Virus record (IMG/VR): IMGVR_UViG_2609460125_000009
Source: a virus
Lineage: Duplodnaviria > Heunggongvirae > Uroviricota > Caudoviricetes
Length of the DNA: 64,000 nucleotides
Reading direction: 5' to 3' (one strand)
Below the pieces are notes generated by a model. The model was not told the DNA's origin, did no database searches, and saw only the letters and a list, made by a program, of their open reading frames with translations. The translations under genes were made by a program, and so were the position numbers. Shown piece by piece: positions 13,326-64,000 of this stretch; positions within the stretch are counted from its first letter, which is position 1, and each line of letters opens with the position of its first letter.

Positions 13326-13335
13326 TGTCGAAGTT

Positions 13336-13879: not shown

Positions 13880-13886
13880 GAGTAAA

Positions 13887-14156
13887 CTACTCCATGCTTT
13901 TCAGACGATCAGCAGCTCGTTTCAGCTTGTCGTTCGGTGCCGGAGGATTGCTTATAGCGTCCATAACCAGATTCCAGGATTCTTCATTCAGAACTAGTCT
14001 ACGGTGTTGCTCTATAACTTTCACGGCACGTTCAGATGCACTGCTAACCATAAACTGAGTAATGCTCTGGTTAGACATTGCGGCAGCTTCCTCGATGATG
14101 CTTTTATCGTCATCGGTTAATCTCAAATCGATGCGCTGCTTTTTTAGTGCTGACAT
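13887..14156 (-). CDS. DUF1778-family antitoxin (TacA/KacA-like)
   Basis: ATG at 14156 with AGGAGG upstream; product MSALKKQRIDLRLTDDDKSIIEEAA... is the typical N-terminus of DUF1778 antitoxins; ends 8 bp before the toxin start. Confidence 0.75.
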   Translation of the reverse strand: MSALKKQRIDLRLTDDDKSIIEEAAAMSNQSITQFMVSSASERAVKVIEQHRRLVLNEESWNLVMDAISNPPAPNDKLKRAADRLKSME

Positions 14157-14474
14157 GTATTCCTCCTGATGGCCGTGATGTAGGAAGGCCATCAATCTCC
14201 TCTGTTCAAACTGAGTTTTCGACTCAAAAATTACTTTAAAAGGCTATAGCCCATTACGTGTGCATTATCAAATTGTGTACGGCATAACACCGTACTTGTA
14301 ATATAGAGGTCATTGTTACTTTTTTCAACAGACAAATACAAGCTATGATTGCCAATTGTTAATCACAACCTACCATTTAACCTTTACACCGCAGCCGTAG
14401 GCATTTAGGCTATATCACATATAAGAAAACAAGTTGTTTCAGACGATAATTATATACGCAAAGGGAACTCTCCA

Positions 14475-15143: not shown

Positions 15144-15502
15144 TGTCCATGAAAATGGGTGACCTAGCAAAGCGCAAAGAGCCTGATGCACCGGCTAAGA
15201 ACACAACTCCTTTGCGCCAACCAGTCAGACCACAGGGACGCCCGACTCGTGGCAAAGAGAAAATTAAAAGCCGCACAATGTCACTGGAGGACGAATACTT
15301 CGAACTGCTGGAGATGATGAAGTTCATCCCTCGCTTCGAGAAGTTCACTCGTTCTGACGTGATTCGAGCAGCCATTTTCCATCTGGCAGAGAAGTCACCG
15401 CAGGAAATCGAGGACATCGTGAAATTGAATGAGGCGATCACCGCTGCCGATGTCACGATGCGTACCGATGAAATCAAACGAGAGTTGATGAAGAAAGGTT
15501 AA
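15143..15502 (+). CDS. ParG/ParB-like small centromere-binding protein (ribbon-helix-helix)
   Basis: Start overlaps the parA stop (TAATG); basic N-terminus and a C-terminal RHH-like segment. Confidence 0.55.
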   Translation: MSMKMGDLAKRKEPDAPAKNTTPLRQPVRPQGRPTRGKEKIKSRTMSLEDEYFELLEMMKFIPRFEKFTRSDVIRAAIFHLAEKSPQEIEDIVKLNEAITAADVTMRTDEIKRELMKKG

Positions 15503-15507
15503 AAATC

Positions 15508-15538
15508 ATGCATTGGCGCGTACATTGCGCCAATGCAT
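15508..15538. terminator. perfect 12-bp inverted repeat (ATGCATTGGCGC-N7-GCGCCAATGCAT) between convergent genes
   Basis: Lies between the parG-like stop and the - strand GIY-YIG gene stop; T-rich on the - strand side. Could also be a protein-binding site. Confidence 0.4.
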
Positions 15539-15554
15539 AACTACAGTGTCAGCT

Positions 15555-16322
15555 TTATGCCGCGCTAACACTATGTTCAGTCCTAACCACCCCAACCTTC
15601 ACAAAAGGGCTACCGTAGCTTGGTGGCTTCTTGATTAATTTGCCTACATACAGTTTTCTAATATGCTCATCGGCTATTCTGCCAACAAATTCATAACGTT
15701 TTGTGTCGGGGCCAAGAGCTATATCCCTTGTAAAGTACTGCTGAGAACCGGCTTTGACCCAGCATTCAATCTGATAAACTTCCATTATCAGCCCACCATA
15801 TGTAGCGTAGGCATATTTGAGATTCTCGTCTCTTGGAACCTTTGCCCATACGCCACGCGTAGCTTCATATAATGCCAGAGCGGACATTCCTGACTTGTAG
15901 GTGCTGTTTAGCAGGAAGGCAAGACCGGCGTGCTCAGGAGCAATTTCAGTTTCCTCTTGCAGCACTAAGTGATGGTAGGCGTCCAGTGATATTCTGCCCA
16001 TCATGGAACCACTTCCTCGTACCTTATTCGTAAGCTCTCCGACCCCCATAAGGTCGATGCATGTCGCCTCAACAAGTTTGGCTGTGGTTTCATCCATACC
16101 ATGACGAAGTATATCTATGCCTAATTTTTTATTAGCCAAAAGTTCTTTGATCCGCATGGATTTGGGAGAGTCATCGGGATACTTGATGTGATCGAGACAA
16201 CGAGTCGATTTGCCTTTTCCTATGTAAAACGGTCTTTTCATCTTGTCTTCTGTATCATAGAGACAGTAAACATAGTATTTAGCCTTATCCAATGATCTCG
16301 CGTATACCGATAAATCGTCCAT
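15555..16322 (-). CDS. GIY-YIG nuclease-domain protein (T5orf172-like) with uncharacterised C-terminal domain
   Basis: N-terminal YYVYCLYD...PFYIGKGK...R...H matches the GIY-YIG core; the remaining ~170 aa have no motif I recognise. Confidence 0.6.
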   Translation of the reverse strand: MDDLSVYARSLDKAKYYVYCLYDTEDKMKRPFYIGKGKSTRCLDHIKYPDDSPKSMRIKELLANKKLGIDILRHGMDETTAKLVEATCIDLMGVGELTNKVRGSGSMMGRISLDAYHHLVLQEETEIAPEHAGLAFLLNSTYKSGMSALALYEATRGVWAKVPRDENLKYAYATYGGLIMEVYQIECWVKAGSQQYFTRDIALGPDTKRYEFVGRIADEHIRKLYVGKLIKKPPSYGSPFVKVGVVRTEHSVSAA

Positions 16323-51501: not shown

Positions 51502-52234
51502 ATTAAGCCGCTCGCAGTTTTTGCAGGTATTTGCAGTGATGCAGTCGATAAAACTGATCAATGGGCATACTTCCAATGGTGCGGCTCCACGTATTCTGTG
51601 GGGCAGCAACAATATTGACGGAGTACAATTCGCCGCGTTGCTTGGTCTAATATCCGAGACGCCATTGATGCAAAGTTTGAAATCACTACCACCTGGATGT
51701 ATTGCGCCGATCCTGATTAATCCTTTTGTTGAGGGGGGATATCTTCCCAACGTCGGGCCTGGGTTTATCGCAACCCATGAAACTGAAGATCTTAACATTG
51801 ATAGCGAAGGGTTCTTTGGGGCAATGGATGCGCATCTCTGTATGGCTTTCACGAACCTTATTCGACTTGCCAATAAGCGGGTGGATAGTTTGGCATCGCC
51901 AGGTGATGCTTTTACTGGTTTCCTTATCCAAAGGAGGGATAAAAAGTACAGTGCGGACAAACTACAGTTTGTTGGTAAGTATGGAGAAATGGTAGAAATC
52001 GAACTTCAGCTCCCTCATGTTTTAGCAAACGATAGTGCAGACAGTCGGAGGCTGTTGGGCATCATGCGTCATTTCATAGCAAGTGGCGTTAAACATGCCG
52101 TAGATAAACGTGTCACGCAGGAAAATGAGTATTCAGACTTTGCAAACTATCCCCAACCAACGTTGCAAACGGCAATAGTAGCCAATTCGTTGGAGGCGAG
52201 ATTATTGGAAAACCCTCTATGGGGAACATGGTAA
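51491..52234 (+). CDS. hypothetical protein (possible sliding-clamp-like accessory, speculative)
   Basis: 247-aa ORF overlapping the sbcC stop; N-terminus MSFKLSRSQFLQVFAVMQSIKL loosely recalls the T4 gp45 N-terminus, and it sits beside the gp46/47-like pair. Confidence 0.5.
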   Translation: MSFKLSRSQFLQVFAVMQSIKLINGHTSNGAAPRILWGSNNIDGVQFAALLGLISETPLMQSLKSLPPGCIAPILINPFVEGGYLPNVGPGFIATHETEDLNIDSEGFFGAMDAHLCMAFTNLIRLANKRVDSLASPGDAFTGFLIQRRDKKYSADKLQFVGKYGEMVEIELQLPHVLANDSADSRRLLGIMRHFIASGVKHAVDKRVTQENEYSDFANYPQPTLQTAIVANSLEARLLENPLWGTW

Positions 52235-52243
52235 GGAGACTAT

Positions 52244-52813
52244 ATGAGTAAAAAAATCAGCGTAGTTGGTGTTGATCCCTCTATGAGCAACTTTGGGCTT
52301 GCTGTGGGCACTTTAGACCTTGAAACGGACGAACTTGAGATTCACGGCCTTACTCTTGTTGAGACTAAAGCGGGGAGTAACAAAAAGACCGTTCGTGTGA
52401 ACAGTGACGATCTGCGCCGTGCCAGTGAAATATGGCGTGTTGCGAAGCCAATCATTGATAAGGCGAATATGGTTTTTTGTGAACTACCGGTTGGGAGCCA
52501 AAACTCTCGTTCGCAGACGTCTTACGGTATTTGTATCGGTGTACTTGCGTGTGTGGATAAGCCATTGATCCAGGTCACTCCAAACGAAATCAAGCATTTT
52601 GTTGGCAATAAACTTACTACATCGAAAGAAGAGATTATCCAGTGGGCTACGAAAAAACACCCTAAAGCACCGTGGCTGCGTCGTAAGCAATCTGGACAGG
52701 ATGTTCTCGTGAACAAAAACGAACATTTGGCTGATGCGGTGGCTGCCATCCATACCGGTATGCAAACAGATCAGTTTCGCCAGGTGCGCGATGTTCTCAA
52801 GTCTCTCATTTGA
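52244..52813 (+). CDS. RuvC-like Holliday junction resolvase
   Basis: N-terminal VVGVDPS...FGLAV and C-terminal HLADAVA motifs consistent with the RuvC catalytic acidic residues. Confidence 0.7.
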   Translation: MSKKISVVGVDPSMSNFGLAVGTLDLETDELEIHGLTLVETKAGSNKKTVRVNSDDLRRASEIWRVAKPIIDKANMVFCELPVGSQNSRSQTSYGICIGVLACVDKPLIQVTPNEIKHFVGNKLTTSKEEIIQWATKKHPKAPWLRRKQSGQDVLVNKNEHLADAVAAIHTGMQTDQFRQVRDVLKSLI

Positions 52814-52886
52814 TCTCATTGATAGGTAAGTGCTTATCTATTAACATGGGCCACTAAATATAGTGGCCCTCTTTATTTGGTGATAC

Positions 52887-55202
52887 ATGATAAGCATCGT
52901 AAAACGTAACGGCCAAACAGAGCCGTTATCCGAAGAAAAATACAACCGCGTCGTAATGTATGGCGTAGAAGGCATTCGTGGTGTAAGCGCATCCGCTGTA
53001 GCAATGGGAGCTGCGACCAGCATTTTTGATGGGATTACCACCAGCCAGTTGCATGAGGCTTTGGTTAAATCTGCCGCTGATTTGATCTCACCAGATGCAC
53101 CAAATTACTCGCAGGTGGCTGCCCGCCTGAACATTTTTAAAATCCGCAAAGATGCCTTCGGTCGTTACGACTATCCGAACTTCTACCAACACATTGTCAA
53201 GAACGTTAACAAGGGCGTTTATGACAAGGATTTGCTGACACATTATTCATTTGAAGAGATCGAAGAACTCGGCAATTACATTAAGCCTAAACGTGACGAT
53301 CTTTTTGGCTATGCAGCTACGGTGCAGTTGCAAAGCAAATACCTCGTTCAAAACCGTGTTACTGGTGAGATTCACGAAGGCCCGCAACATATCTATATGC
53401 TGGTGGGCATGTGTCTGTTCCAGAATTGGGAAGACGACTGCGCGGGCAAAACACGTATGGAGATGGTCAAAGGTTTCTATGACGTTACAAGTACGTTCAA
53501 GCTGTCTCTGCCCACACCAATCATGGCCGGCGTCCGTACTCCAACCCGTCAGTTCTCCAGTTGTGTGCTGATTGAGTCTGGCGATAGTCTGAAAGGGATT
53601 AGTGCAGCTTCAGCCGCAATTATCGACTACGTTTCACGTCGTGCTGGAATTGGTATTGGTTTTGGCCGTATCCGTGCGCTGGGCAGCGAGATCCGCAATG
53701 GTGAAGCCACCCATACCGGAGTTATTCCATTCCTGAAGCATTTCCAGACGGCTGTTAAATCTTGTTCGCAAGGTGGTGTTCGTGGTGGCGCAGCAACAGC
53801 GTTTTACCCGATCTGGCATCTTGAAGTTGAAAGTCTGCTGGTGGTGAAAAATAACCGTGGTATTGATGAAAACCGCGTTCGCCATCTTGATTACGGCGTC
53901 ATGAGTAACCGTCTAATGTACCGTCGACTCGTCAGAAGCGAGAACATCACTCTGTTCAGCCCGCATGATGTGCCTGATATGTACGAAGCCTTCTTCACAG
54001 ACCAGGATCTGTTTGAAAAGCTGTACCATAAATACGAAGCCGATGATTCAATTCGCAAGAAGTCAGTACCTGCCATTGAGCTGTTCTCATCTCTGATGCA
54101 GGAACGAGCGTCCACGGGCCGAATTTATATTGCGAACGTCGATCATATTAACGAGCATGGCGCTTTCATTCCTGCTCTTGCACCTGTTCGCCAGTCAAAC
54201 CTGTGCATGGAGATCACTCTACCCACTCGTCCACTGGCATTTACCGACGACCCGAACGGTGAGATCGCGCTATGCACTTTATCCGCTTTTAACCTCGGAG
54301 CCATCCGTTCACTGGAGTCCCTTAAAGAGGTGGCGTTCTATGCCGTTGCTGCACTGGATTCGTTACTGGATTATCAAGACTATCCGATGGAGGCAGCCGA
54401 AGTGCCTGCCAAAGCTCGTCGTAGCTTGGGAATTGGTGTAACCAACTTTGCTTATTACCTGGCAAAGAATGGCGTTCGTTATTCTGATACCGCTGGCAAT
54501 AAACTGGTGCATGAAACGTTCGAAGCTATCCAGTATTACCTTCTTGATGCCAGCTGCCGACTTGCTGAAGCAAAAGGTGAGTGTGACTGGTTTGAGCAGA
54601 CCAAGTACGCAATTGGTCAGTTGCCGATCGACCATTACCGTTCTTCATTAGACGAAAGTGGCGAAACCAACTTTGAGTTAAAGATGCCGTGGGAAGAACT
54701 GCGTGAACGTATTGCAAAATACGGCCTTCGCAACTCCACACTGACGGCACAAATGCCATGCGAGACTTCCAGCCAGATCACTAATTCCACCAACGGCATC
54801 GAACCGCCTCGTGGCCCGGTGTCGGTGAAATCTTCTAAGGACGGCATCGTTAAGATGGTCGTGCCTGAGTTTGAAAAACTGAAGGAACAGTATGAATACC
54901 TGTGGGATATGCCGGACAACCGCGGCTATCTGACAAAGGTGGCGATCATCCAGAAGTTCTTTGACCAGGCTATTTCAGCCAATACCAACTATGACCCTTC
55001 TCGCTTTGAAGGCGATAAAGTCCCAATGATGACGCTACTGTCAGATTTGCTTCTCGCCTACAAGATGGGAGTTAAAACGCTTTACTACCACAACACCAGA
55101 GATGGTGCAGGAAAGCGTGATGACGACGAAGCGCAGAATCCACTTACGCAAGCTGTAGCCGTCGAGCCAGAAGATGAGTGCGACGGAGCCTGCAAAATCT
55201 GA
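52887..55202 (+). CDS. nrdA: ribonucleoside-diphosphate reductase class Ia alpha subunit
   Basis: ATP-cone N-terminus; active-site region SNLCMEI; C-terminal Cys pair (ECDGACKI); collinear with E. coli NrdA as I recall it, with very high similarity. Confidence 0.95.
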   Translation: MISIVKRNGQTEPLSEEKYNRVVMYGVEGIRGVSASAVAMGAATSIFDGITTSQLHEALVKSAADLISPDAPNYSQVAARLNIFKIRKDAFGRYDYPNFYQHIVKNVNKGVYDKDLLTHYSFEEIEELGNYIKPKRDDLFGYAATVQLQSKYLVQNRVTGEIHEGPQHIYMLVGMCLFQNWEDDCAGKTRMEMVKGFYDVTSTFKLSLPTPIMAGVRTPTRQFSSCVLIESGDSLKGISAASAAIIDYVSRRAGIGIGFGRIRALGSEIRNGEATHTGVIPFLKHFQTAVKSCSQGGVRGGAATAFYPIWHLEVESLLVVKNNRGIDENRVRHLDYGVMSNRLMYRRLVRSENITLFSPHDVPDMYEAFFTDQDLFEKLYHKYEADDSIRKKSVPAIELFSSLMQERASTGRIYIANVDHINEHGAFIPALAPVRQSNLCMEITLPTRPLAFTDDPNGEIALCTLSAFNLGAIRSLESLKEVAFYAVAALDSLLDYQDYPMEAAEVPAKARRSLGIGVTNFAYYLAKNGVRYSDTAGNKLVHETFEAIQYYLLDASCRLAEAKGECDWFEQTKYAIGQLPIDHYRSSLDESGETNFELKMPWEELRERIAKYGLRNSTLTAQMPCETSSQITNSTNGIEPPRGPVSVKSSKDGIVKMVVPEFEKLKEQYEYLWDMPDNRGYLTKVAIIQKFFDQAISANTNYDPSRFEGDKVPMMTLLSDLLLAYKMGVKTLYYHNTRDGAGKRDDDEAQNPLTQAVAVEPEDECDGACKI

Positions 55203-55207
55203 CATAT

Positions 55208-55235
55208 GGTGGGGTATATCCCCACCTTATCTTTG
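55208..55235 (+). terminator. rho-independent terminator
   Basis: GGTGGGG-TATAT-CCCCACC followed by TTATCTTT after the nrdA stop. Confidence 0.65.
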
Positions 55236-55302
55236 ATTTGTAAGCCTTGTTTAAACACATAAGATAACAACTTGTTTAAACACATCAAAAAAGGAAAAAC
55301 AC

Positions 55303-56445
55303 ATGTCATATTCAACGTTCCGTTTGGGTGCTAATGATGCAACCAAAGAGCCTATGTTCCTCGGACAATCTGTCAACGTGGCACGTTACGATCAGCAAAA
55401 ATACCGTGATTTTGAAAAGTTGATTGAACGTCAATTGTCTTTCTTCTGGCGGCCGGAAGAAGTTGATATTTCGAGTGATCGTATCGACTTCAACACGAAG
55501 CTGCGGGACCACGAACGTCACATTTTTCTGAGCAATCTCCGTTATCAAACGTTACTCGATTCAGTTCAGGGACGTAGCCCAAATGCAACGCTTCTGCCGC
55601 TTATCTCTATTCCTGAACTGGAAACGTGGGTTGAAACATGGTCTTTCTCTGAGACTATCCATAGCCGCAGCTACACCCACATTATTCGTGGCATGGTGGA
55701 CGATCCGAGTATTGTTTTTGACGGTATTGTTACGGATGAAGAAATCATCAACCGAGCGATCAGTATCTCTGCTGAATATGACAGGCTTTATGGGATGACC
55801 TGCGAGCGCCAGTCGTTAGGTGAGAAAGAGTTTGAACGTCTGTACGTAAATGAATATGGCTGGGAGCCATACCCTTTGCACCGTCAGCTTTTCCGCACGT
55901 TGGTGTCCATTAATGCGCTTGAGGCGATCCGTTTCTATGTAAGTTTTGCATGTACGTTTGCCTTTGGCGAACGGAAGTTGCTTGAGGGTAACACCAAAAT
56001 TATGCGCTTTATTGCCCGTGATGAAGCTCTGCATTGCGAAGGAACTGAACGCATGATCCGCTTCATGCGTACCGGTCGCGAAGGCTTATTGTGGAAAGAG
56101 ATTGCTGCTGATGAAGAAAACGTCATTTACGACACCATGAAATCAGTCGCCGAACAAGAAATGAACTGGGCAGACTATCTCTTCAAAGACGGTTCGATGA
56201 TTGGTTTAAACGCGGATATTCTGAAGACCTATGTAAAATACCGCACCAATCTGGCTATGAATCGTCTTGGCCTGAAGGCTTTATTTCCAGAAGTTACCAC
56301 AGATCCGCTGGTCTGGATGAACAAGTGGTTGTTAACCGACACACTGCAAATTGCACCACAAGAGGCAGAGCAAAGCACATATCTGGTAGGTCAGATCGAT
56401 TCTACCGTGGATAAGGCTTCTCTAAGCCAGTTTGCAGACCTGTAA
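55303..56445 (+). CDS. nrdB: ribonucleoside-diphosphate reductase class Ia beta subunit
   Basis: Conserved leader AAAGGAAAAACACATG; collinear with E. coli NrdB as I recall it ([30 protein letters not shown] motifs). Confidence 0.9.
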
Positions 56446-56522
56446 ACCGATACAAAGCATTATGTGGCCTGGCAACGCTGGGCCACAATGGATCACAAGA
56501 ATTAAGAAGGAACAAAACTAGC

Positions 56523-57392
56523 ATGAACTTTACCAAACTGACTGACCACCTGAAACTTGCCACCGATCGTCTCATTGGATTTAAGCCAGAACCATATGAG
56601 TTGCATGAAGGTCATGGTGTAGCTACTGAAAGTATTTACAAGATGGTCGATCAGTTTCATGAACTCTTCCAGCATCCGAGACGCGTTATGCCGACACCAG
56701 AGCTGCTTCGTCTCCGTGCAAGCCTGATTCATGAAGAAGCTGTAGTGGAAGGTATTCCAGCCGCAATGAATGGGGATATTGAGCAACTGCTGGATGCAAT
56801 GGCCGACTTTTTATACGTTGGTGTTGGTACGATGGTCGCCATCAAAGGTGGTATTTCTACCGGCATGACCTATTACACGCAGGAACAGAGCATTGATCGC
56901 TTTATGCAGACAATTTTTGTGCCCGGTAACACTGTTTTCGATGATATGGCAATGCCATTTCAGGAAGCTCGTGAGGCGTCATGTATGCTCGAAGAGCTGG
57001 CAGATAAACTTGAGAAGAAGACTGTTAAGGATTCTGAGCTGATTCAGGAACTGCGCCGTGTAATGAACAAAATCTATGTGGCGTGCATGATGACTTATCG
57101 ACTGGCTGATTTCCTCGGTATCAATGTCGTCGAGCTGGTTGGCGAAATTCATCGGTCTAACATGACAAAATTATGGCCTGCTGATGTTGAGGAACGTCGC
57201 CAGGCTGTGGCCAACTGCAAATACGACTCTTCAGATCTGGGATTCCGCCATGCTGATGGCACCGATAAGATGATCGGTTTTCGAATTTCCGATGGAAAGA
57301 TTATGAAGTCTCCAACCTATAGTGATGTCGATTTATCCTCCTTTGTTGAGCAAGCTAAAGCCTCAGCAATGTACGGAATGATCAAAAAATAA
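56523..57392 (+). CDS. hypothetical protein, possibly an all-alpha NTP pyrophosphohydrolase (MazG / dimeric dUTPase-like)
   Basis: RBS AAGGAA; EExxE...D..E-type acidic motifs (LIHEEAVVEG...DIEQLLDAMADF); assignment tentative. Confidence 0.4.
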   Translation: MNFTKLTDHLKLATDRLIGFKPEPYELHEGHGVATESIYKMVDQFHELFQHPRRVMPTPELLRLRASLIHEEAVVEGIPAAMNGDIEQLLDAMADFLYVGVGTMVAIKGGISTGMTYYTQEQSIDRFMQTIFVPGNTVFDDMAMPFQEAREASCMLEELADKLEKKTVKDSELIQELRRVMNKIYVACMMTYRLADFLGINVVELVGEIHRSNMTKLWPADVEERRQAVANCKYDSSDLGFRHADGTDKMIGFRISDGKIMKSPTYSDVDLSSFVEQAKASAMYGMIKK

Positions 57393-57447
57393 TTGTAGGT
57401 AGTTATCTATCTGTGTATATTTAACATGCGTAATAAAACTCTGGAAT

Positions 57448-57476
57448 GACTATTCGTTTTGGTGGCCTATGGCCGC
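57448..57476 (+). terminator. rho-independent terminator
   Basis: TGGTGGCC-TAT-GGCCGCCA followed by TTTTTTT. Confidence 0.7.
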
Positions 57477-57562
57477 CATTTTTTTATCTGTCTGGTCTTG
57501 TTCTCTCAATGAATGTAAACTCACACGATGAATAAGTAATTACTTATCTTTGTGAGGTTTTT

Positions 57563-58666
57563 GTGTCACTCCTTTTGAATCGAGAGCATACGAACGGTCA
57601 GGTAACAAACGCATCGTATGCAAAAGTTATTGAGACGGTGCTTAAAAGCGGCGTGCAGGCTGATGATCGCACAGGCACTGGTACTTTAAGCACCTGCTAC
57701 GTTCCCTCTTACTACATGCTTACTGGTGGGACTGTGCCGCTTATTTCTGGAAAGGCGGTAAATCTTAAGCCACTGCTTGTCGAACTTGAGTGGTATCTGA
57801 AAGGCACGGGCAACATCCAATTTCTCAAGGATAACGGCGTTAAGATTTGGGATGCATGGGCCGATGAGAATGGCGATTTGGGGCCGGTTTACGGTAAGCA
57901 GTGGCGTCGATGGGAAGATACCCGCATCGTGAGCCATAGTGAATATCTGAGCAAGATCGATACTTTCCGTGAACGCGGGTACAAAGTCGAGGGATACCTG
58001 GGTATCAGTGAAGATCGCGTAGTGCTGTCCCGTGAAATCGATCAGCTACAGCGTATTGTCGATACACTGCGCACGAACCCCACCGATCGTCGCATCATGC
58101 TTAACGCATGGAACGTAGGCGAGCTTGAGGATATGAAACTGCCACCTTGCCACTTTGTCTTCTCTTTGTGGAGTCGTGAGCTTGATTTTGAAACCCGTTT
58201 AACGATGGCAACTGACATTGGTCTTCAACACAGTCGCCTCGGTTATGAGTCTATCTACACCAAGATGCTATACGATCTGGAGATGGACGGCAGTGTTACT
58301 GAAACTGAACTGGATGAACTTGGAATCCCCAAACGCATCCTCAACTCCTGCCTCGTACAGCGTAGCGTAGACACTTTTGTTGGTATGCCATTCAATATTG
58401 CTGGCTATGGCATTCTCACTCATTTTCTCGCGAAGATTACGGGTCACATGGCCGGTGCATTTGTACATTTTGGCTTTGACGTGCATTTGTACAACAACCA
58501 CATGGAAGGTGTGTGTGAGCTAATGAAACGACAGGCTCCAGAGCATTCAGATCCGGTCGTTATTTTCCCTCATGAATGGTCTGAGCTGGATGATTTCAAA
58601 TGGGACGATATTCTGATTCTTGGCTATGACCCTCTACCGTGGATCAAGGTTCCAGTGGCGGTGTGA
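57563..58666 (+). CDS. thyA: thymidylate synthase (ThyA-type) with two insertions
   Basis: GTG start after GAGG; motifs DRTGTGT, DLGPVYGKQWR, RRIMLNAWNVGEL, LPPCH, QRSVD...GMPFNIAGY, HLYNNH; about 100 aa longer than the E. coli enzyme because of two inserted segments. Confidence 0.85.
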   Translation: MSLLLNREHTNGQVTNASYAKVIETVLKSGVQADDRTGTGTLSTCYVPSYYMLTGGTVPLISGKAVNLKPLLVELEWYLKGTGNIQFLKDNGVKIWDAWADENGDLGPVYGKQWRRWEDTRIVSHSEYLSKIDTFRERGYKVEGYLGISEDRVVLSREIDQLQRIVDTLRTNPTDRRIMLNAWNVGELEDMKLPPCHFVFSLWSRELDFETRLTMATDIGLQHSRLGYESIYTKMLYDLEMDGSVTETELDELGIPKRILNSCLVQRSVDTFVGMPFNIAGYGILTHFLAKITGHMAGAFVHFGFDVHLYNNHMEGVCELMKRQAPEHSDPVVIFPHEWSELDDFKWDDILILGYDPLPWIKVPVAV

Positions 58667-58667
58667 T

Positions 58668-59081
58668 ATGGCAATAGGTATGTATGTCTTATGCGAAATT
58701 GAAGGTGTGCTGGCAAATACCAGCCATCGTAAATCTGTATCTGACGCGGATGCAGGCCAGCTCATTGCCGGTGATGAACTCATTTTCCCCACCAGCCGTA
58801 TGTTGCGTGGTTTTGCTCGCTCAGGGGCTGAAGTGGTGCTTATCAGTAGCCGCTCTGAAACTCTTGAAGCGCCCACTAAACGATGGTTGAAAGATTTTGG
58901 TGTTGATTACGACTGGCTTCATCTCGTACCGAATGGCGTCAGTTATGAGAAGCATATTAAGCGCACATTAGCGGAGCATAAAGGCGATCTGCTTATCGCT
59001 GCGCTGGTGCACGATCCTCGACTCCGTGCCGCTTTAGCTGACTCTCATCATAGACCGGTCATCTATGAGGTGAGCAAATGA
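58668..59081 (+). CDS. hypothetical protein (possibly a HAD-like small hydrolase)
   Basis: ATG directly after the thyA stop; weak resemblance to HAD motifs; stop overlaps the DHFR start. Confidence 0.35.
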   Translation: MAIGMYVLCEIEGVLANTSHRKSVSDADAGQLIAGDELIFPTSRMLRGFARSGAEVVLISSRSETLEAPTKRWLKDFGVDYDWLHLVPNGVSYEKHIKRTLAEHKGDLLIAALVHDPRLRAALADSHHRPVIYEVSK

Positions 59082-59554
59082 AGATGATAGCTGCTGTTGG
59101 CCGTAACTATGAGATCGGCATAGCGAACGAACTGCCCTGGCGTTGTTCTACCGATCTGAAGCTATTTAAGAGACTCACCAAAAACGCCACTGTCGTTATG
59201 GGGCGTAAAACGATGGAAAGTCTCAAACGCCCTCTTCCAGAGCGTCATAACCTCGTTTTGACGCGCTCTCATGGCTTTGTACCAAATGGATTCTACCCTG
59301 CTGGTGTGGATGATGTGTTGCGATTACCAGAGCCTGTGTGGGTGATTGGCGGGGAACAAATTTACTCGCTATTCATGCCGCATGTTGAAGAGATTTGGCT
59401 CTCCCACATCGGCGTTGATGTGCCAAACGCCGATGCATTCTTCCCGGCAAGCATGATGCGTAATTTAGGCTTTGTGCCTGTTGAAACAGTTTTTACCCAA
59501 CGAGCCAGCGAGGAAGAGCTTGGCTTTTCGCAGATCGTATACAGAAGGTCGTAA
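59078..59554 (+). CDS. folA: dihydrofolate reductase
   Basis: Motifs IAAVGRNYEIGIANELPW, VVMGRKTMESL and VIGGEQIY. Confidence 0.85.
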   Translation: MKMIAAVGRNYEIGIANELPWRCSTDLKLFKRLTKNATVVMGRKTMESLKRPLPERHNLVLTRSHGFVPNGFYPAGVDDVLRLPEPVWVIGGEQIYSLFMPHVEEIWLSHIGVDVPNADAFFPASMMRNLGFVPVETVFTQRASEEELGFSQIVYRRS

Positions 59555-60198
59555 TGGATTACCGGATTGGGATCACTGGTGCTCAGGGCAGTGGGAAAAC
59601 AACCCTGGCAAAATATATCGACAAACATTACGGAATCCCTTACGTGGATGCTGGTGTCGGAAGTTTGATGAGCCGACTCGGTGTTCGAGTAGGTGAGTCT
59701 ATGCCTCTATATGAGCGGCTTCAGATTCAAATGGAAATAGCAAAGCATATAGAGCTACTTACGCGTGGTGTTGAAGGCTTTGTTATCGATCGCACACCTG
59801 CTGATGTTATGGCCTACACGTTGGATTTGGTCGGCCATACCAATGAAGATCGATGTATTGAGTTAGCCCTCGATATCGAAAAGTTTTGCCACAAAACTGC
59901 TATTTCAAACTTTAACGCCATTGCTGGCTTACGCCCGGGAGTCGCTCTCTCAGAGCGAGATTACTTGCGATCACAACGAGCATCATTAGACCGTCTGTAT
60001 GTCGCTCGTATTGATGCGTTGATGTGCGGGGAACTGACAAAAATTCACCTGCATCCGCAAAGGGGGGATCTGCAAACCTTCGTCGTTTCCAACCGATATC
60101 GCACGGTTGAAGCAAGAGCCAGATCAGTGATGAGAATGCTAGATAACGCTGTAGAAAAGATAGAAAACCGGTTCTGTGGCCGAGTGACCGTTCATTAG
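59554..60198 (+). CDS. P-loop nucleotide kinase (dNMP kinase-like)
   Basis: Walker A GAQGSGKTT at the N-terminus; 214 aa; embedded in the nucleotide-metabolism operon. Confidence 0.55.
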   Translation: MDYRIGITGAQGSGKTTLAKYIDKHYGIPYVDAGVGSLMSRLGVRVGESMPLYERLQIQMEIAKHIELLTRGVEGFVIDRTPADVMAYTLDLVGHTNEDRCIELALDIEKFCHKTAISNFNAIAGLRPGVALSERDYLRSQRASLDRLYVARIDALMCGELTKIHLHPQRGDLQTFVVSNRYRTVEARARSVMRMLDNAVEKIENRFCGRVTVH

Positions 60199-60259
60199 AA
60201 ATTGTTCGCCTCTTCGACATTGCGACAATAAAACTCTCAAAATGGGTTAAGGATAAAAA

Positions 60260-60679
60260 ATGTTTAGTGAAATGTTGCTTGAAGATGAACTGGATCGGAA
60301 AACAACAGAGGCTTTGATTCGTGTAGCGGACGAACATTCCCGGTCTCTTATGAGCGATCGAGAGGCTCGTCTGGCTATTCGTGCCATATTCGAAACTGCG
60401 CAGGGGCTTGTTGGCGCACAAGTAGGTGAAGCCATTAACATCGCCATGTCTCAGTTCAGTGAAGGCAGTAAAAAGCCTCTGTTTCCTATGCATTTGATGC
60501 TGGCTGGTGGCACGGTGCTTTACGTCTCTGTTTGTCTGGATAGCAACCAAATCAACATTCTCAACACGGCGTCAGGTAAGTGGAAAGATCCGGTTGTCTG
60601 TGAAACCAGTGAAGAAACTTTGAAAAAAGCGGCTCAATTTGTACGTAGCGCACTACTTAAGGGCGCTAAGAAGTTGTAA
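60260..60679 (+). CDS. hypothetical protein
   Basis: 139-aa ORF with RBS AAGGA. Confidence 0.45.
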   Translation: MFSEMLLEDELDRKTTEALIRVADEHSRSLMSDREARLAIRAIFETAQGLVGAQVGEAINIAMSQFSEGSKKPLFPMHLMLAGGTVLYVSVCLDSNQINILNTASGKWKDPVVCETSEETLKKAAQFVRSALLKGAKKL

Positions 60680-60688
60680 GGAGTAGTA

Positions 60689-61483
60689 ATGGGACAACCG
60701 GTAGACATAACAGGTAAACGTTTTGGAAAGTTGGTTGCACTTAAATATTCCGGTATTTCAAACAAACAAGGGCGACTTTGGGATTGCATCTGCGATTGCG
60801 GCAACACCTGCCTGGTTAGTTACGGGAAGCTAAATCACGGGGCGACAATATCGTGTGGCTGTGTCTACAACGCACATCGCCGTAGCGTAAAGCCTCATGG
60901 TATGAGTAAAACGCCAATTTATCGTATATGGCTGGGTATGCGGGAACGATGTGAAAAACCAATCCATCACGCCTATAAGTGGTATGGCGGCCGAGGTATC
61001 AAAGTCTGCGAGCGGTGGCAAATATTTGAAAACTTTTATGCTGACATGGGAGAGCGACCAGAGGGGATGTCTCTTGATCGCAAAGATGTGAATGGTGACT
61101 ACGAACCTGAAAATTGCAGATGGGCGACTTTTGAAGAACAGGCCAATAACACGCGTTCAAACTTAATTTTGGAGCATAAGGGGGAAAAGCTGACTCTCTC
61201 ACAATGGGCTAAAAGAGCCGGGATTCAGACATCAACTCTTCACTATCGAATCAAGAAAGGGTGGCCATTAGATCGCGCGCTTAACGCCAGCGTCGACACG
61301 TATGCCAACCGAGATAGTAAGCGTCTGATCGAGTGTCGCGGCAGAACTCAGCGAATTACCGAATGGGCTAGAGAGGTTGGCTTGACTGCGACCATTATCT
61401 CGCAGCGAATTTTGAGGGGGTGGGATGTTGAAGCTGCCATCTTCACACCGTCCAAACGACCAGTAAAAGGAGATAAAAAGTGA
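60689..61483 (+). CDS. putative HNH-family endonuclease-like DNA-binding protein
   Basis: RBS AGGAG; Cys cluster CICDCGN...CGC and the segment YRIWLGMRERC...YGGRGIKVCERW...LDRKDVNGDYEPENCRWAT typical of phage free-standing HNH-type endonucleases. Confidence 0.45.
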   Translation: MGQPVDITGKRFGKLVALKYSGISNKQGRLWDCICDCGNTCLVSYGKLNHGATISCGCVYNAHRRSVKPHGMSKTPIYRIWLGMRERCEKPIHHAYKWYGGRGIKVCERWQIFENFYADMGERPEGMSLDRKDVNGDYEPENCRWATFEEQANNTRSNLILEHKGEKLTLSQWAKRAGIQTSTLHYRIKKGWPLDRALNASVDTYANRDSKRLIECRGRTQRITEWAREVGLTATIISQRILRGWDVEAAIFTPSKRPVKGDKK

Positions 61484-62028
61484 TTGCTACAGGGGTGGAC
61501 ATCGAATCAACAGGTCTTGATTTCCTCTCAGGCCATAAAATCATTGAAATCGCAATGGTGAAGTACGAAATTGAGACACAGACAATGGTTGATAGTTTTG
61601 TAATGCGGTTCAACCCGCGTCGCAGTATCGATCCGAAAGCGCAAGCGGTACACGGCATCAGTCTTGAAGATTTAGCCGCCGAGCCGTTACTAGCCGATCA
61701 CGCTTCATCTGTCGCTTCGTATCTCTCTTCTTCCGATATTTGGATAGCCCACAACGGCGAAGCGTTCGATATTCCGTTTATTAGGCATGAGCTGAAAAGT
61801 TACGGTTTTTCGCTTCCAGACATCCCATTGATTGACACTCTATTTTCCCTGTGGGCCACAGAAGACGGTAAACGTCCTCGCCTTGAAGAATTGGCCTTCT
61901 CTCTTGGCTTTATATACGATCATGCCAAAGCACATAGTGCCTTATATGACACAAACTTAATGATGCAATGCTTCTTTAAGGCACGTAATAAATACGGATT
62001 TTTTAAATTACCCTCTGAAATTGTGTAA
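61480..62028 (+). CDS. DnaQ-like 3'-5' exonuclease (DEDDh proofreading subunit)
   Basis: GTG start after AAGGAG; Exo I DIESTGL, Exo II HNGEAFDIPF, Exo III HSALYDT. Confidence 0.85.
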   Translation: MIATGVDIESTGLDFLSGHKIIEIAMVKYEIETQTMVDSFVMRFNPRRSIDPKAQAVHGISLEDLAAEPLLADHASSVASYLSSSDIWIAHNGEAFDIPFIRHELKSYGFSLPDIPLIDTLFSLWATEDGKRPRLEELAFSLGFIYDHAKAHSALYDTNLMMQCFFKARNKYGFFKLPSEIV

Positions 62029-62033
62029 AACAA

Positions 62034-62072
62034 AAGCCTGCTTTAAAGAGAGTTTGAAGCAGGCTTTCTTTT
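62034..62072 (+). terminator. rho-independent terminator
   Basis: AAGCCTGCTT-loop-AAGCAGGCTT followed by TCTTTT after the exonuclease stop. Confidence 0.65.
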
Positions 62073-62188
62073 AAAGAACAGTCGCCTTTCAATCATTTCC
62101 TGCCTGTATTTAATACTTTTCCGCCTGATAGGTTTAGTCAAAATGTAGCCATCGAAACGCAAATGTAACCAAGCAGAAGGAGACTTAC

Positions 62189-62998
62189 ATGAGTTCGGTT
62201 GAAAATGTAATGACAAATGATGATCTGGACGAGCTGACAGCCATGTTGCAATCACTTGATGAACCAGTAAAAAAAGCCGCACAGGTTGAAAATACTGATG
62301 ATATTGACGATCTGCTGCTCGGCCTCGATGCTGGCGTAGCCATGAGTTCTGATGATGTTGCCGAAGAACTGTTCAATGAAGAAAAAGCAGGTGATTTCAG
62401 CTCTGCTTTAAATGAGTTGGAGTTAGCGCATGAGCCTATAAACGTAATTAACGCTGAAAGTGTTGAAGCTGCCGAAAACGAGCCAGAACAATTGGGATTT
62501 ATTGAGGTTGAAGAGTATGTTGAGGTTAATGACGAATTAAAAGTTCAACAGTCAAATGATAGCAACACAAATAAAAAAGCGCGTACTGCAAGAGGTCCTC
62601 GTTTTACTTTAAGTGATAAAGATGATTCGTTTTTCAATAAAGCAGGCTTAGAAACAGATATTTTCTTAGACGCTTACGAAAACGCGCCTGTCAAAGCAAA
62701 GGATAAGATATTAAACCTTCTTAATTGGTTTAGCGGAGGTCCAGATATTAGTGTTTACACGGTAATTTCCATGAGACACCTTCTCACAGAAAAGAAGGCT
62801 ACAAGTAATAGTATTAAGATTGCTTTAATGAGCAATCCAGAAAAACCGTATCCGCTTAACACTGCGTCAACTCAGGCTGGGCAAATGATGGCTGTATTTC
62901 CAGCGACAGGAATTGCCGTTAGAGACGGTGGAAATCTAACATTGAACGAAGAATCACCGATCGTTAAGAAGTTTGTAGCGGAGTACACTATTGGATGA
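62189..62998 (+). CDS. hypothetical highly acidic protein
   Basis: RBS AGGAG; N-terminal 120 aa very rich in Asp/Glu. Confidence 0.5.
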   Translation: MSSVENVMTNDDLDELTAMLQSLDEPVKKAAQVENTDDIDDLLLGLDAGVAMSSDDVAEELFNEEKAGDFSSALNELELAHEPINVINAESVEAAENEPEQLGFIEVEEYVEVNDELKVQQSNDSNTNKKARTARGPRFTLSDKDDSFFNKAGLETDIFLDAYENAPVKAKDKILNLLNWFSGGPDISVYTVISMRHLLTEKKATSNSIKIALMSNPEKPYPLNTASTQAGQMMAVFPATGIAVRDGGNLTLNEESPIVKKFVAEYTIG

Positions 62999-63073
62999 CG
63001 TCCCCCTACTGAAAATAAAGCCCATAGAGAGCTTTATAGTGCTGGGTAAGCCAATCACATACCCAGCACCACA

Positions 63074-63122
63074 AAAACGCGCCAGAGAGCTTCTCGTTTG
63101 CATTTCTGGCGCGTTTTATTTG
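63074..63122 (+). terminator. rho-independent terminator
   Basis: AACGCGCCAGA-loop-TCTGGCGCGTT followed by TTATTT. Confidence 0.7.
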
Positions 63123-63181
63123 ATTGCCAGACATAAAATCAAATGCAAAAATAGGTAATCACTTACCTATCGAGAAAGAAG

Positions 63182-63775
63182 ATGATTGCAGCCGAAAAAA
63201 TCAAACAGCGAAAGCGCGACAACTCTCTTCGTGACCTCTGGAGAACACCTGACTGGCTGTTTTCTGCCATTCAACGTTATCTTGGAGTGACATTTGATGT
63301 TGACGTTGCCTGCAACAAGGACAATGCAAAGCTGCCTAATTTCATAGGCGTTGAGCGTGATGCTTTGAAATCTGAATGGGGACAGCCAGGTACAATTGCC
63401 TTCCTCAATCCACCCTACTCCAAAATCTCCCCCTGGATTGATGCGGCTATACGTGAGCAGGCTCGCGGAGTTACAACAGTGATGCTAATTCCTCAATCCC
63501 TCGATACAAAGTGGTATGAGCGTGCAACAGAGTGTGCGAATGAGACGATTATTCTGTCTGGTGGCCGCGTAGCGTTTGTCGAGCCTGACGTCAATTTGGG
63601 TCAGGTAGAAGTAAACATCAACCCCGGTGGCAGTATGCTCGTTGTTTTTCGAGGATTTTGTCAGGACGCTGGGCACTCTATAAGCAAGATCCCTTTGGAC
63701 GTCATGAAAAGTCTGGGAGGGTATGATCCTGCGAATGTGATCAGGAAAAAAAGACCATCAAAGAAGGCTGCTTAG
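63182..63775 (+). CDS. DNA N6-adenine methyltransferase (phage Dam-like family)
   Basis: Catalytic motif FLNPPYS (NPPY); 197 aa, consistent with small phage Dam-type methyltransferases. Confidence 0.8.
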   Translation: MIAAEKIKQRKRDNSLRDLWRTPDWLFSAIQRYLGVTFDVDVACNKDNAKLPNFIGVERDALKSEWGQPGTIAFLNPPYSKISPWIDAAIREQARGVTTVMLIPQSLDTKWYERATECANETIILSGGRVAFVEPDVNLGQVEVNINPGGSMLVVFRGFCQDAGHSISKIPLDVMKSLGGYDPANVIRKKRPSKKAA

Positions 63776-63796
63776 TTTGTTCTGGAGTCTGTAATT

Positions 63797-63855
63797 AGCC
63801 TGCTTCTGTATATATAAATAACTACATATTAATTATTAATATACGGAAGCAGGCT
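63797..63855. repeat. large palindromic element, copy 2 (same arms as 16433-16489)
   Basis: AGCCTGCTTCTGTATATAT-loop-ATACGGAAGCAGGCT followed by GTTTT; arms identical to copy 1, loop different. Confidence 0.6.
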
Positions 63856-63961
63856 GTTTTATATCAGAGACTCCCAGACCTGAACACCACTACAGAATCC
63901 ACTAGAACCCCTTCCCAGACGCTTTAAAATCGATTTTATGAACCACTTTAAGGAAACCAAC

Positions 63962-64000
63962 ATGTCATACCCGACTAATGTCGTTGCGCTCGTAGAGAGC
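63962..64000 (+). CDS. start of a further ORF running out of the window
   Basis: ATG preceded by AAGGAAACCAAC; only 13 codons visible. Confidence 0.3.
   Translation, partial: MSYPTNVVALVES

Follow-up and report, generated by a model that had tools for sequence, protein, structure and literature searches.

A predicted insert-bearing thymidylate synthase in the nucleotide-supply module of an SSU5-like phage-plasmid

The 64,000-nucleotide stretch of viral DNA analysed here (the window) encodes a ThyA homologue with two inserted segments, set among other genes of nucleotide metabolism. Does this enzyme make ordinary dTMP or, as a first-pass annotation had offered as an alternative, does it act with a dedicated kinase and pyrophosphatase to make a modified pyrimidine? 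We consider it highly probable that an SSU5-like phage-plasmid encodes here the thymidylate branch of its replication and nucleotide-supply module, and we would expect ordinary thymine in the DNA of this element.

The island and its host element

The window shares 98.8% nucleotide identity with Escherichia phage Cyrano (OV696614) and 76% with Salmonella phage SSU5 (NC_018843), and the gene order is the same in both; the host element is thus an SSU5-like temperate phage-plasmid of the Escherichia phage Cyrano type. In our survey of 5,426 complete E. coli genomes, the island was found in 233 (4.3%), many of them of human and poultry origin, and 235 of the 237 places in which it occurs are plasmid-borne. 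All five open reading frames of the island lie where the first-pass annotation had put them, and they follow nrdA and nrdB on the same strand:

52887..55202, + strand: nrdA, class Ia ribonucleotide reductase large subunit, 771 aa (upstream context)
55303..56445, + strand: nrdB, ribonucleotide reductase small subunit, 380 aa (syntenic Cyrano and SSU5 annotation)
56523..57392, + strand: MazG-like all-alpha NTP pyrophosphohydrolase, candidate dUTPase, 289 aa (PRA-PH/MazG-type Pfam match)
57460..57485, + strand: terminator-like hairpin with T-run, downstream of the MazG-like gene and upstream of thyA (consensus match only)
57563..58666, + strand: thyA, predicted thymidylate synthase, 367 aa (PF00303, TIGR03284, fold and residues)
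58668..59081, + strand: HAD-like ORF with a degenerate catalytic motif, 137 aa (PHROG 5387, weak PNKP-phosphatase HAD match)
59078..59554, + strand: DHFR (frd), DfrA51 type, 158 aa (PF00186, NF047324)
59554..60198, + strand: P-loop kinase-like protein, candidate dTMP/dNMP kinase, 214 aa (AAA_28)

The syntenic counterparts of nrdA in Cyrano and SSU5 are annotated as NrdA-like NDP reductase large subunits. The thyA gene starts with a GTG codon preceded by a GAGG ribosome-binding site, the HAD-like ORF begins 1 nt past the thyA stop, and the DHFR ATG overlaps the HAD-like stop (ATGA). Because start and stop codons abut or overlap in this way, thyA, the HAD-like ORF, frd and the kinase gene are probably translated together. 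The surrounding module (RNR, DnaE, helicase, primase, ligase and SSB genes) is likewise co-oriented and tightly packed. The hairpin upstream of thyA has an 8 bp stem with 6 G-C pairs followed by TTTTTTT; terminator-like sites occur in the region at chance level (11 observed versus 11.2 in shuffles). In the Cyrano record, thyA is mislabelled as 'ThyX' and the kinase gene as 'ABC transporter ATP-binding protein'.

The ThyA homologue and its two insertions

The ThyA homologue matched Thymidylat_synt (PF00303, Pfam) with 266 bits and the thymidylate synthase equivalog TIGR03284 (NCBIfam) with 222.7 bits. The latter model has a cut-off of 108.35, which the hydroxymethylases SPO1 gp29 (58.2), T4 gp42 (30.6) and PaMx11 gp51 (53) all fail. 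The protein aligned to E. coli ThyA structures with an E-value of 7e-61 (HMMER), and the core of its structural model superposed on E. coli TS with a TM-score of 0.94 normalised to the E. coli chain, with 33% identity over the Foldseek alignment. It keeps R21, E58, W80, W83, Y94, R126, R127, C146, H147 and Q165, and also R166, S167, D169, N177, H207, Y209 and the C-terminal PVAV. At the five discriminating positions (W80, W83, H147, Q165 and the C-terminal P-V-A-V), the window protein is in the synthase state throughout. T4 gp42, SPO1 gp29 and PaMx11 gp51 all depart from E. coli ThyA at four of these positions, the exception being W80, which is kept in T4 gp42. Position 177 is Asn and not the Asp of dCMP hydroxymethylase, and a dCMP enzyme is therefore ruled out. 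Sequence and fold together argue strongly for an otherwise standard thymidylate synthase that would convert dUMP to dTMP.

The two insertions had been put at about 40 and 50 aa, close to their net lengths as counted in alignment gap columns:

57917..58027, + strand: ThyA insert 1 (119-155 of the protein; +34 aa net), after the QWRxW motif and before the IDQ helix
58172..58342, + strand: ThyA insert 2 (204-260 of the protein; +51 aa net), within the hairpin that joins the Cys146 strand to the Arg166 strand

The HMMER match to the E. coli ThyA structures is broken into three blocks, leaving insert 1 unaligned opposite E. coli residues 103-105 and insert 2 opposite residues 154-159, and in an alignment of 59 sequences the gaps of the 264-aa ThyAs at these sites span exactly 34 and 51 columns. 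We take the site of insert 1 to be the loop where eukaryotic TSs bear a short insertion, presumably a different site from that of the 50-aa Lactobacillus casei insert. The AlphaFold2 model of the protein has a mean pLDDT of 94, with blocks of at least 90 throughout both inserts. Insert 1 is modelled as a strand, two short helices and a beta-hairpin (pLDDT blocks 93-97), and insert 2 as three helices (209-225, 231-242 and 247-253; pLDDT blocks 95-98). No solved structure found with Foldseek spans the inserts (TM normalised to the query 0.65-0.69), while predicted structures of jumbo-phage TSs reach 0.80-0.87, compared with 0.68 for insert-free TSs.

Both inserts could be functionless loop expansions, neutral and tolerated, a reading that we regard as possible but unlikely. 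Both lie far from every catalytic residue in sequence, their lengths vary among metagenomic relatives, and in relatives of 47-62% overall identity they are 22-50% identical compared with 52-75% for the core. Against this, the inserts are confidently folded in the model, and both are coding and under purifying selection: relative to SSU5, pN is 0.023 and pS 0.60 for insert 1 (ratio ~0.04), and pN is 0.117 and pS 0.86 for insert 2 (ratio ~0.14), with synonymous sites close to saturation. Their lengths are also nearly constant across SSU5-like elements of seven genera (Escherichia, Salmonella, Klebsiella, Enterobacter, Providencia, Morganella and Xenorhabdus), and the ends of insert 2, an E..R start and an LD..(I/V)P(K/R)R end, are seen again in relatives from phages and metagenomes, including the jumbo-phage enzymes. 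In the model the inserts are folded surface modules, and our most plausible guess is that they offer a docking surface for partner proteins.

Neighbouring enzymes and trimethoprim

The possible NTP pyrophosphohydrolase of the first-pass annotation matched a PRA-PH/MazG-type Pfam model (35.6 bits, cut-off 21.3) and has sequence matches to DR2231 of Deinococcus radiodurans. Acidic metal-binding residues are invariant in its family, which comprises 68 clusters from SSU5-like elements only. The protein appears most like the dimeric dUTPases and is a candidate dUTPase; neither a trimeric dUTPase nor a dCMP deaminase is annotated between 15 and 87 kb of the Cyrano record. The description of the small ORF as HAD-like also holds. 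It matched PHROG 5387 (E 7e-89), scored 24.5 bits against the PNKP-phosphatase HAD domain, below the Pfam cut-off of 27.6, and aligned to the Pnkp1 phosphatase domain (E 2.3e-5) with EIEGVL opposite DLDGTL. Within the phage-plasmid clade, related proteins show E, A or T in place of the nucleophile, and most are without motif IV; DxDGT is present in distant relatives. Since the catalytic aspartates are lost, the protein is probably non-catalytic and no phosphatase.

The P-loop protein matched AAA_28 (38.3 bits, Pfam cut-off 27) and, weakly, the thymidylate kinase family PHROG 2107 (E 2.9e-10), and a profile search of the PDB returned P-loop matches as well as deoxyguanosine kinase over residues 1-128 (E 0.03). 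Walker A, D79-R80-T81 and several Arg residues are invariant in 23 relatives, and the family was found only on contigs of ~100-113 kb. These motifs and the position of the gene hint at a dTMP or dNMP kinase.

The DHFR, a match to DHFR_1 (PF00186, 119.6 bits, Pfam), passes the NCBIfam model NF047324 for DfrA51 (329.9 bits, cut-off 322) and is 88.6% identical to the SSU5 DHFR (AFL47010.1), the reference DfrA51 (Wang et al. 2025, PMC12217456). All four residues mutated in the DfrA51 study, A6, I13, D26 and S48 (PMC12217456), are present in the window protein, and RefSeq labels E. coli plasmid copies of the gene dfrA51. Judged by its sequence, the window gene is this already described trimethoprim-resistance gene, and AMR pipelines now call it dfrA51.

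In the pathway that we propose, NrdAB would supply deoxyribonucleoside diphosphates, the MazG-like protein may hydrolyse dUTP to dUMP, and ThyA would very probably convert dUMP and methylene-tetrahydrofolate to dTMP and dihydrofolate. The dihydrofolate would be recycled by DHFR; the SSU5 DfrA51 has been shown experimentally to be active in E. coli and to bind trimethoprim weakly (PMC12217456). The P-loop protein might then phosphorylate dTMP, or dNMPs generally. The argument from DHFR to ordinary dTMP synthesis is supported, and the module would be one of ordinary dTMP/dTTP supply, already annotated, in a common and well-sampled E. coli phage-plasmid.

We think it improbable that the thyA-frd pair is instead kept mainly for antifolate protection of the lysogen (lysogenic conversion, with trimethoprim tolerance) and not for dTTP supply to phage replication. 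When dfrA51 was expressed, the MIC of trimethoprim rose 128-fold both in BL21 (from 4 to 512 mg/L) and in TOP10 (from 2 to 256 mg/L), and DfrA51 bound trimethoprim with a Kd ~9-fold weaker than E. coli DHFR did (PMC12217456). The frequency of the island in E. coli, its human and poultry sources and the calls of the AMR pipelines fit such a role. However, resistance was demonstrated with expression vectors and not the native element, dfrA51 has no flanking mobile element and is deemed ancestral to the phage-plasmids by the authors (PMC12217456), and the gene is embedded in the co-oriented replication and nucleotide module. Strictly lytic phages, too, commonly encode trimethoprim-insensitive DHFRs (PMC12466917), so drug selection is not needed to explain insensitivity. 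Finally, thyA is interrupted by an IS in one plasmid copy among the complete E. coli genomes, and thyA is therefore dispensable in the plasmid state.

Modified pyrimidines and comparison with known systems

It is very improbable that the ThyA homologue hydroxymethylates pyrimidines, or substitutes them at position 5 in another way, and together with the pyrophosphatase and kinase feeds a modified pyrimidine into phage DNA, as happens in T4, SPO1, ViI or M6/PaMx11. Known dUMP hydroxymethylases do likewise exceed 264 aa (SPO1 gp29, 383; PaMx11 gp51, 348), the operon includes a P-loop protein, and PaMx11 gp62 is of MazG/PRA-PH type, with 26% identity to the MazG-like protein of the window over 100 aa (pairwise E 2e-4), a distant similarity. 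However, the synthase-state residues and the TIGR03284 score set the window ThyA apart from the three hydroxymethylases, and SPO1 gp29 and PaMx11 gp51 owe their extra length to a C-terminal extension, away from the insert sites. Hydroxymethylation yields no dihydrofolate, and the translationally coupled DHFR downstream, sensible only with dihydrofolate production, therefore speaks against a hydroxymethylase. The supposed dedicated kinase has only the P-loop in common with PaMx11 gp49 (22 aa, E 0.057), the MazG profile is unrelated to the T4 gp56 dCTPase, and the Cyrano annotation from 15 to 87 kb contains no glycosylase-fold, PLP, radical-SAM or glucosyltransferase genes, the partners in hypermodification. 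PaMx11 gp49 is the sole P-loop protein encoded in the hypermodification cluster of that phage. The literature searched yielded no base-composition analysis of virion DNA from SSU5-type phages. Of the original interpretation, the description of the island and the DHFR argument are supported, while the modified-pyrimidine alternative is not.

Thymidylate supply by this module has its nearest parallels in Cyrano and SSU5, where nrdA, nrdB, the pyrophosphohydrolase, thyA, the small ORF, DHFR and an AAA-family ATPase occur in identical order and orientation; the island proteins of SSU5 are 80-89% identical to those of the window, which differs from both phages by an additional HNH endonuclease gene directly downstream (60689-61483). 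The DHFR gene occupies the equivalent position to that of SSU5 DfrA51, although the window allele has diverged from it as given above and the resistance phenotype is known for the SSU5 allele from expression vectors. The MazG-like protein shares the all-alpha NTP pyrophosphohydrolase fold of DR2231 and the dimeric dUTPases (L. major 2YAY, C. jejuni 1W2Y and staphylococcal phage 5MYD) and carries their signatures, EExxE...D-type acidics and E-(V/I)-H-R-x-N-x-(S/T)-K, but differs from DR2231 by ~80 additional aa in its interior and by a C-terminal extension of ~70 aa that contains beta structure.

The hydroxymethylase systems (T4 gp42 with gp56 and gp1, SPO1 gp29, and the dU-hmt of PaMx11/M6/ViI with 5-HMUDK) resemble the island in having a ThyA-superfamily enzyme near RNR genes, in genomes that also encode a nucleotide pyrophosphatase and a P-loop protein. 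The window differs from them in its synthase-state ThyA and coupled DHFR, and their partner enzymes are unrelated, or related only at the superfamily level, to those of the window. Beyond the SSU5 group, the closest relatives of the window ThyA are jumbo-phage TSs (Erwinia Machina and Yoloswag, Cronobacter CR5, Salmonella SPFM phages, Goslar and Pseudomonas 201phi2-1), with 34-40% identity over 95-98% of the length; we found no biochemical characterisation of these enzymes in the literature searched. Their predicted structures match the inserts as well as the core, but some are longer (457-471 aa) and they belong to unrelated virulent-phage genomes. With E. coli ThyA (264 aa; PDB 1TYS, 2TSC), the window protein shares the fold and all residues related to substrate, folate and catalysis, and it differs in its 17-aa N-terminal extension and its two insertions.

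The island and its phage-plasmid

The island at 56523-60198 belongs to a compact series of co-oriented ORFs on the + strand (52.9-60.2 kb), and for the genes of the island itself Pfam, PHROGs and NCBIfam gave concordant assignments.

Features of the series, in order along the window
52887-55202, + strand, nrdA ORF
55303-56445, + strand, nrdB ORF
56523-57392, + strand, MazG/PRA-PH-type pyrophosphohydrolase, 289 aa
57460-57485, terminator-like hairpin in the 170 nt separating the MazG-like gene from thyA, TGGTGGCC-TAT-GGCCGCCA followed by T7 (consensus match only)
57563-58666, + strand, thyA, 367 aa, GTG start with GAGG 5 nt before it
58668-59081, + strand, HAD-like ORF, 137 aa
59078-59554, + strand, DHFR gene (frd), 158 aa
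59554-60198, + strand, P-loop protein (putative kinase), 214 aa

The stop and start codons of thyA, the HAD-like ORF, the DHFR gene and the kinase gene abut or overlap, and the predicted hairpin upstream of thyA suggests two transcription units. The region is 98.8% identical in nucleotide sequence to the Escherichia phage Cyrano (OV696614) and 76% to the Salmonella phage SSU5 (NC_018843), with a gene order identical to both. Over the window, the Cyrano record carries tail and lysis genes together with ParA, RepA, toxin-antitoxin pairs, an integrase and a repressor, which shows that the source element is an SSU5-type temperate phage-plasmid. Cyrano also has its own replication set, comprising DnaE, an epsilon-like exonuclease, a helicase, a primase, a ligase, SSB, UvsX/RecA and SbcCD. 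Two labels in the Cyrano record contradict our family searches: the ThyA-family gene at 13164-14267 is called 'ThyX Thymidylate synthase', and the P-loop kinase at 15155-15799 is called 'ABC transporter ATP-binding protein'.

The 3.7-kb island is present in 233 of 5,426 complete E. coli genomes, and all but two of its 237 places there are plasmid-borne, on plasmids of ~110 kb and mostly at 95-99% identity. In a near-identical copy on the E. coli EC7518 plasmid NZ_CP085184 (95627-100615), the match contains an IS3-like element, IS1203, and there are two thymidylate synthase annotations, so that thyA is apparently split in this copy and hence dispensable in the plasmid state.

Some neighbouring features were also recorded. 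An HNH homing-endonuclease-like ORF at 60689-61483 (PHROG 374, E 2e-78), absent from both Cyrano and SSU5, sits between an ORF at 60260-60679 and the epsilon-like exonuclease gene. The window matches Cyrano at 97.8% identity as far as 60684 and at 98.9% from 61850 onward. Beside the insertion (61482-61850), the 5' portion of the exonuclease gene reaches only 74-80%, a pattern that resembles homing with co-conversion of flanking sequence. ARAGORN found four tRNA genes at 24295-24992 (Asn, Tyr, Thr and Ser) where the Cyrano record has three (Asn, Thr and Ser), so the tRNA-Tyr is either extra in the window or was missed in that record. The sole DNA-modification gene seen near the island, at 63182-63775, encodes a phage-type N6-adenine DNA methyltransferase (TIGR01712, 113.9 bits, cut-off 97.05).

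Thymidylate synthase or hydroxymethylase

The first-pass annotation had weighed two roles for an insert-bearing ThyA flanked by nucleotide genes: ordinary dTMP synthesis, for which the DHFR was the argument, or the making of modified pyrimidines. We aligned the window ThyA with E. coli ThyA, whose residue numbers are used here, and with three hydroxymethylases of known or accepted function: the dCMP enzyme T4 gp42, the dUMP enzyme SPO1 gp29, and gp51 of PaMx11, a ThyA-superfamily protein of a thymidine-hypermodifying phage (listed in PMC5889632). At C146, R21, R126', R127', R166, S167, D169, N177, H207, Y209, E58 and Y94 the window protein is identical to E. coli ThyA, and the catalytic cysteine, the dUMP-binding residues, E58 and Y94 are invariant across 59 relatives. 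Cys146, Arg166, Ser167, Asp169, His207, Tyr209, Glu58 and Tyr94 are common to all five aligned proteins. The discriminating positions are those that go with folate binding, active-site closure and hydride transfer. Here none of the three hydroxymethylases keeps the E. coli W83, H147, Q165 or C-terminal P-V-A-(V/I), and W80 is also changed in SPO1 gp29 and PaMx11 gp51, whereas T4 gp42 keeps it. The window ThyA is synthase-like throughout (W, W, H and Q at W80, W83, H147 and Q165, with PVAV at the C-terminus). At N177 it has Asn, and not the Asp of the dCMP enzyme T4 gp42.

The profile scores divide these proteins in the same way. The window ThyA matches PF00303 at 266.4 bits (cut-off 24.3) and the TIGR03284 equivalog at 222.7 bits (cut-off 108.35). 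All three hydroxymethylases fall below the latter cut-off (58.2 bits for SPO1 gp29, 52.7 for PaMx11 gp51 and 30.6 for T4 gp42), and TIGR03284 thus separates synthases from hydroxymethylases. By Foldseek, the core of the window model superimposes on E. coli TS with an E-value of 1e-31 and a TM score of 0.94, normalised to E. coli TS.

We also looked for the partner genes of hypermodification, namely 5-HMUDK, a glycosylase-fold aGPT-Pplase, PLP or radical-SAM enzymes and glucosyltransferases (PMC5889632), and none is annotated within the inspected 15-87 kb of Cyrano. Tblastn searches with the window kinase, MazG-like and HAD-like proteins gave nothing significant against PaMx11 (15-59.9 kb) or T4 (14-34 kb), and the literature searched yielded no study of base composition for SSU5-type DNA. 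To our knowledge, reductive methylation is the sole ThyA-family reaction that yields dihydrofolate, and a functional DHFR coupled to thyA therefore fits that reaction. With the TS-specific residues all kept, the TIGR03284 score, a DfrA51-type DHFR coupled to thyA and no partner genes annotated in that part of Cyrano, we consider the predicted function of the island settled, at the level of sequence, in favour of ordinary dTMP synthesis; the modified-pyrimidine alternative was not borne out.

The ThyA inserts and their distribution

The two extra segments claimed for ThyA are real: HMMER blocks, alignment gaps and a folded model all confirm them. HMMER aligns the protein to E. coli ThyA chains in three blocks, leaving out residues 119-155 (insert 1, facing E. 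coli 103-105) and 204-260 (insert 2, facing E. coli 154-159), and in a 59-sequence alignment the 264-aa enzymes have 34 and 51 gap columns at the two sites. Both inserts are confidently folded in the AlphaFold2 model (mean pLDDT 94 for the whole protein). Insert 1, directly N-terminal of the IDQ helix, consists of a strand, two short helices and a beta-hairpin. Insert 2 forms three helices in the turn joining two strands, one beginning with the catalytic Cys (197-206) and one bearing the Arg-Ser-x-Asp motif (258-270). Compared to SSU5, pN is 0.023 in insert 1 and 0.117 in insert 2 while pS is 0.6-0.86; with so few non-synonymous differences despite synonymous sites close to saturation, both inserts are selected as protein.

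An intron or structured RNA is rejected as the source of the inserts: both keep the reading frame, fold and are selected as protein, and Rfam (52000-64000, E up to 1) returned no intron or other RNA element. Insert 1 was also compared with the 'small domain' insert of Lactobacillus casei TS, which we take to precede the GDLGxVYG motif, and this identity was dropped since the residue numbering of that enzyme puts the L. casei insert elsewhere. Pfam finds only Thymidylat_synt on ThyA, in two stretches and with no known domain within the inserts, and none of the solved TS structures found by Foldseek covers them. Nor are they described in the literature on SSU5 thymidylate synthase and phage TS insertions, as searched. 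Among close relatives insert 1 is mosaic: two of them (P0002 and P0004) are 56% identical to the window there and 90-95% in the flanking core, and a further cluster (P0003) is 94% identical within the insert. This mosaicism suggests that the surface may have undergone recombination or faster evolution.

Full-length relatives (350-378 aa) recovered by protein search lie on contigs of ~100-120 kb from Escherichia, Salmonella, Klebsiella, Enterobacter, Raoultella, Providencia, Morganella and Xenorhabdus, and metagenomes hold versions with shorter inserts. One metagenomic relative (P0054) is on a 292-kb contig that is phage-like, because it carries small unannotated ORFs, PhoH, an NAD-dependent DNA ligase and MazG. 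The next relatives among sequenced phages, at 34-40% identity, are in the jumbo phages Erwinia Machina, Cronobacter CR5, Salmonella SPFM and Goslar. BFVD models of jumbo-phage TSs (201phi2-1, Yoloswag and a 471-aa entry) give TM scores of 0.80-0.87 normalised to the query, above the 0.65-0.69 (same normalisation) of every insert-free solved TS, so the inserts are structurally matched in jumbo phages too. The ends of insert 2 carry recurring motifs: E..R follows the first strand, and LD..(I/V)P(K/R)R precedes the second.

Neighbouring proteins and comparison with known systems

The DHFR passes the DfrA51 model NF047324 (329.9 bits, cut-off 322) and is 88.6% identical to the SSU5 protein, the reference DfrA51; near-identical genes on E. 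coli plasmids carry the RefSeq label dfrA51. Expression of SSU5 DfrA51 in E. coli raised the trimethoprim MIC from 4 to 512 and from 2 to 256 mg/L, a rise seen with the SSU5 allele and in expression vectors only, and the enzyme binds trimethoprim ~nine-fold more weakly than E. coli DHFR does (PMC12217456). A6, I13, D26 and S48, which matter for resistance by mutagenesis (Wang et al. 2025, PMC12217456), are all present in the window protein (translation MKMIAAVGRNYEIGIANELPWRCSTDLKLF...TMES). The same authors found no mobile element near dfrA51 and hold the gene to be ancestral to these phage-plasmids (Wang et al. 2025, PMC12217456). The island that carries it is in ~4% of complete E. coli genomes and the gene is now reported by resistance pipelines; for resistance calling it is useful to know that dfrA51 is an ancestral phage housekeeping gene in a dTMP operon and not an acquired cassette.

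The MazG-like protein matches PF01503 at 35.6 bits (cut-off 21.3). Its E71, E76 and D95 are invariant among relatives and E72 and D91 almost so, and the acidic metal-binding residues together with an E-I-H-R-S-N-M-T-K motif are invariant in 30 of them. In PDB sequence searches it matches DR2231 of Deinococcus best (E 0.0016). We take DR2231 to be dUTP-specific, and the inspected part of the element (Cyrano 15-87 kb) has no annotation for another dUTPase or for a dCMP deaminase. From the DR2231 matches, the kept acidic residues and the lack of another annotated enzyme of this kind, we infer that its role is most likely the conversion of dUTP to dUMP. A relation to the T4 gp56 dCTPase was rejected (hhalign probability 0.2%, no profile similarity detected), and PaMx11 gp62 is similar at the superfamily level only.

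The P-loop protein has a Walker A motif (G9-x4-G-K15-T) and a D79-R80-T81 motif after the second strand, both invariant or almost so, as are R127, R139 and R142; this motif pattern is of the nucleoside/nucleotide monophosphate kinase type. PHROG 2107 'thymidylate kinase' matches residues 3-102 only (E 2.9e-10), and no Tmk chains are among the best PDB profile matches. Single-sequence and profile searches of the PDB gave essentially P-loop matches, with a weak deoxyguanosine-kinase match alone extending beyond it, and three database searches found family members on SSU5-like contigs only. Judged by its position among the genes, it may be a dTMP or dNMP kinase. PaMx11 gp49 (24218-24787, P-loop GTSGSGKS) adjoins the dU hydroxymethyltransferase and, as the only P-loop protein in the thymidine-hypermodification cluster, is probably a 5-hmdU DNA kinase misannotated as 'terminase small subunit'. 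The window kinase matches it over 22 aa of the P-loop (E 0.057), and no specific likeness to 5-HMUDK was found in this comparison.

The HAD-like ORF aligns to the Pnkp1 phosphatase domain with E-I-E-G-V opposite D-L-D-G-T, so that HAD motif I with its nucleophilic Asp is not found, and it scores 24.5 bits against Pfam HAD_PNKP, under the 27.6 cut-off. An exhaustive HMMER search recovered distant relatives with the canonical DxDGT; members of the phage-plasmid clade carry E, A or T in the nucleophile's place, and most of them lack acidic motif IV. Because Ala and Thr are incapable of acting as the nucleophile, this clade has probably given up phosphatase chemistry. The ORF has nevertheless kept its position between thyA and frd despite the degenerate motif, and it looks like a conserved pseudo-phosphatase. 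One could imagine ThyA, the dead HAD-like protein, DHFR and the kinase forming a physical 'metabolon' that channels dUMP to dTDP, with the inserts as docking surfaces and a similar arrangement in nucleus-forming and other jumbo phages, but we think this improbable.

The element and its genes are already in databases, and the DHFR is already in the experimental literature. The outcome for ordinary dTMP synthesis is mostly a clean negative for the alternative, in that a long ThyA alone is no ground to list SSU5-type phage-plasmids as base-modifying candidates. W80, W83, H147, Q165 and the C-terminal PVAV, with the TIGR03284 score, provide a quick synthase/hydroxymethylase discriminator for other scans. 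The insert-bearing synthase common to phage-plasmids and jumbo phages, and its decayed HAD-like partner, pose small questions for enzymologists. The extra length itself distinguishes the window ThyA from the hydroxymethylases: in SPO1 gp29 and PaMx11 gp51 it is a C-terminal extension, whereas in the window protein it is made up of two internal insertions.
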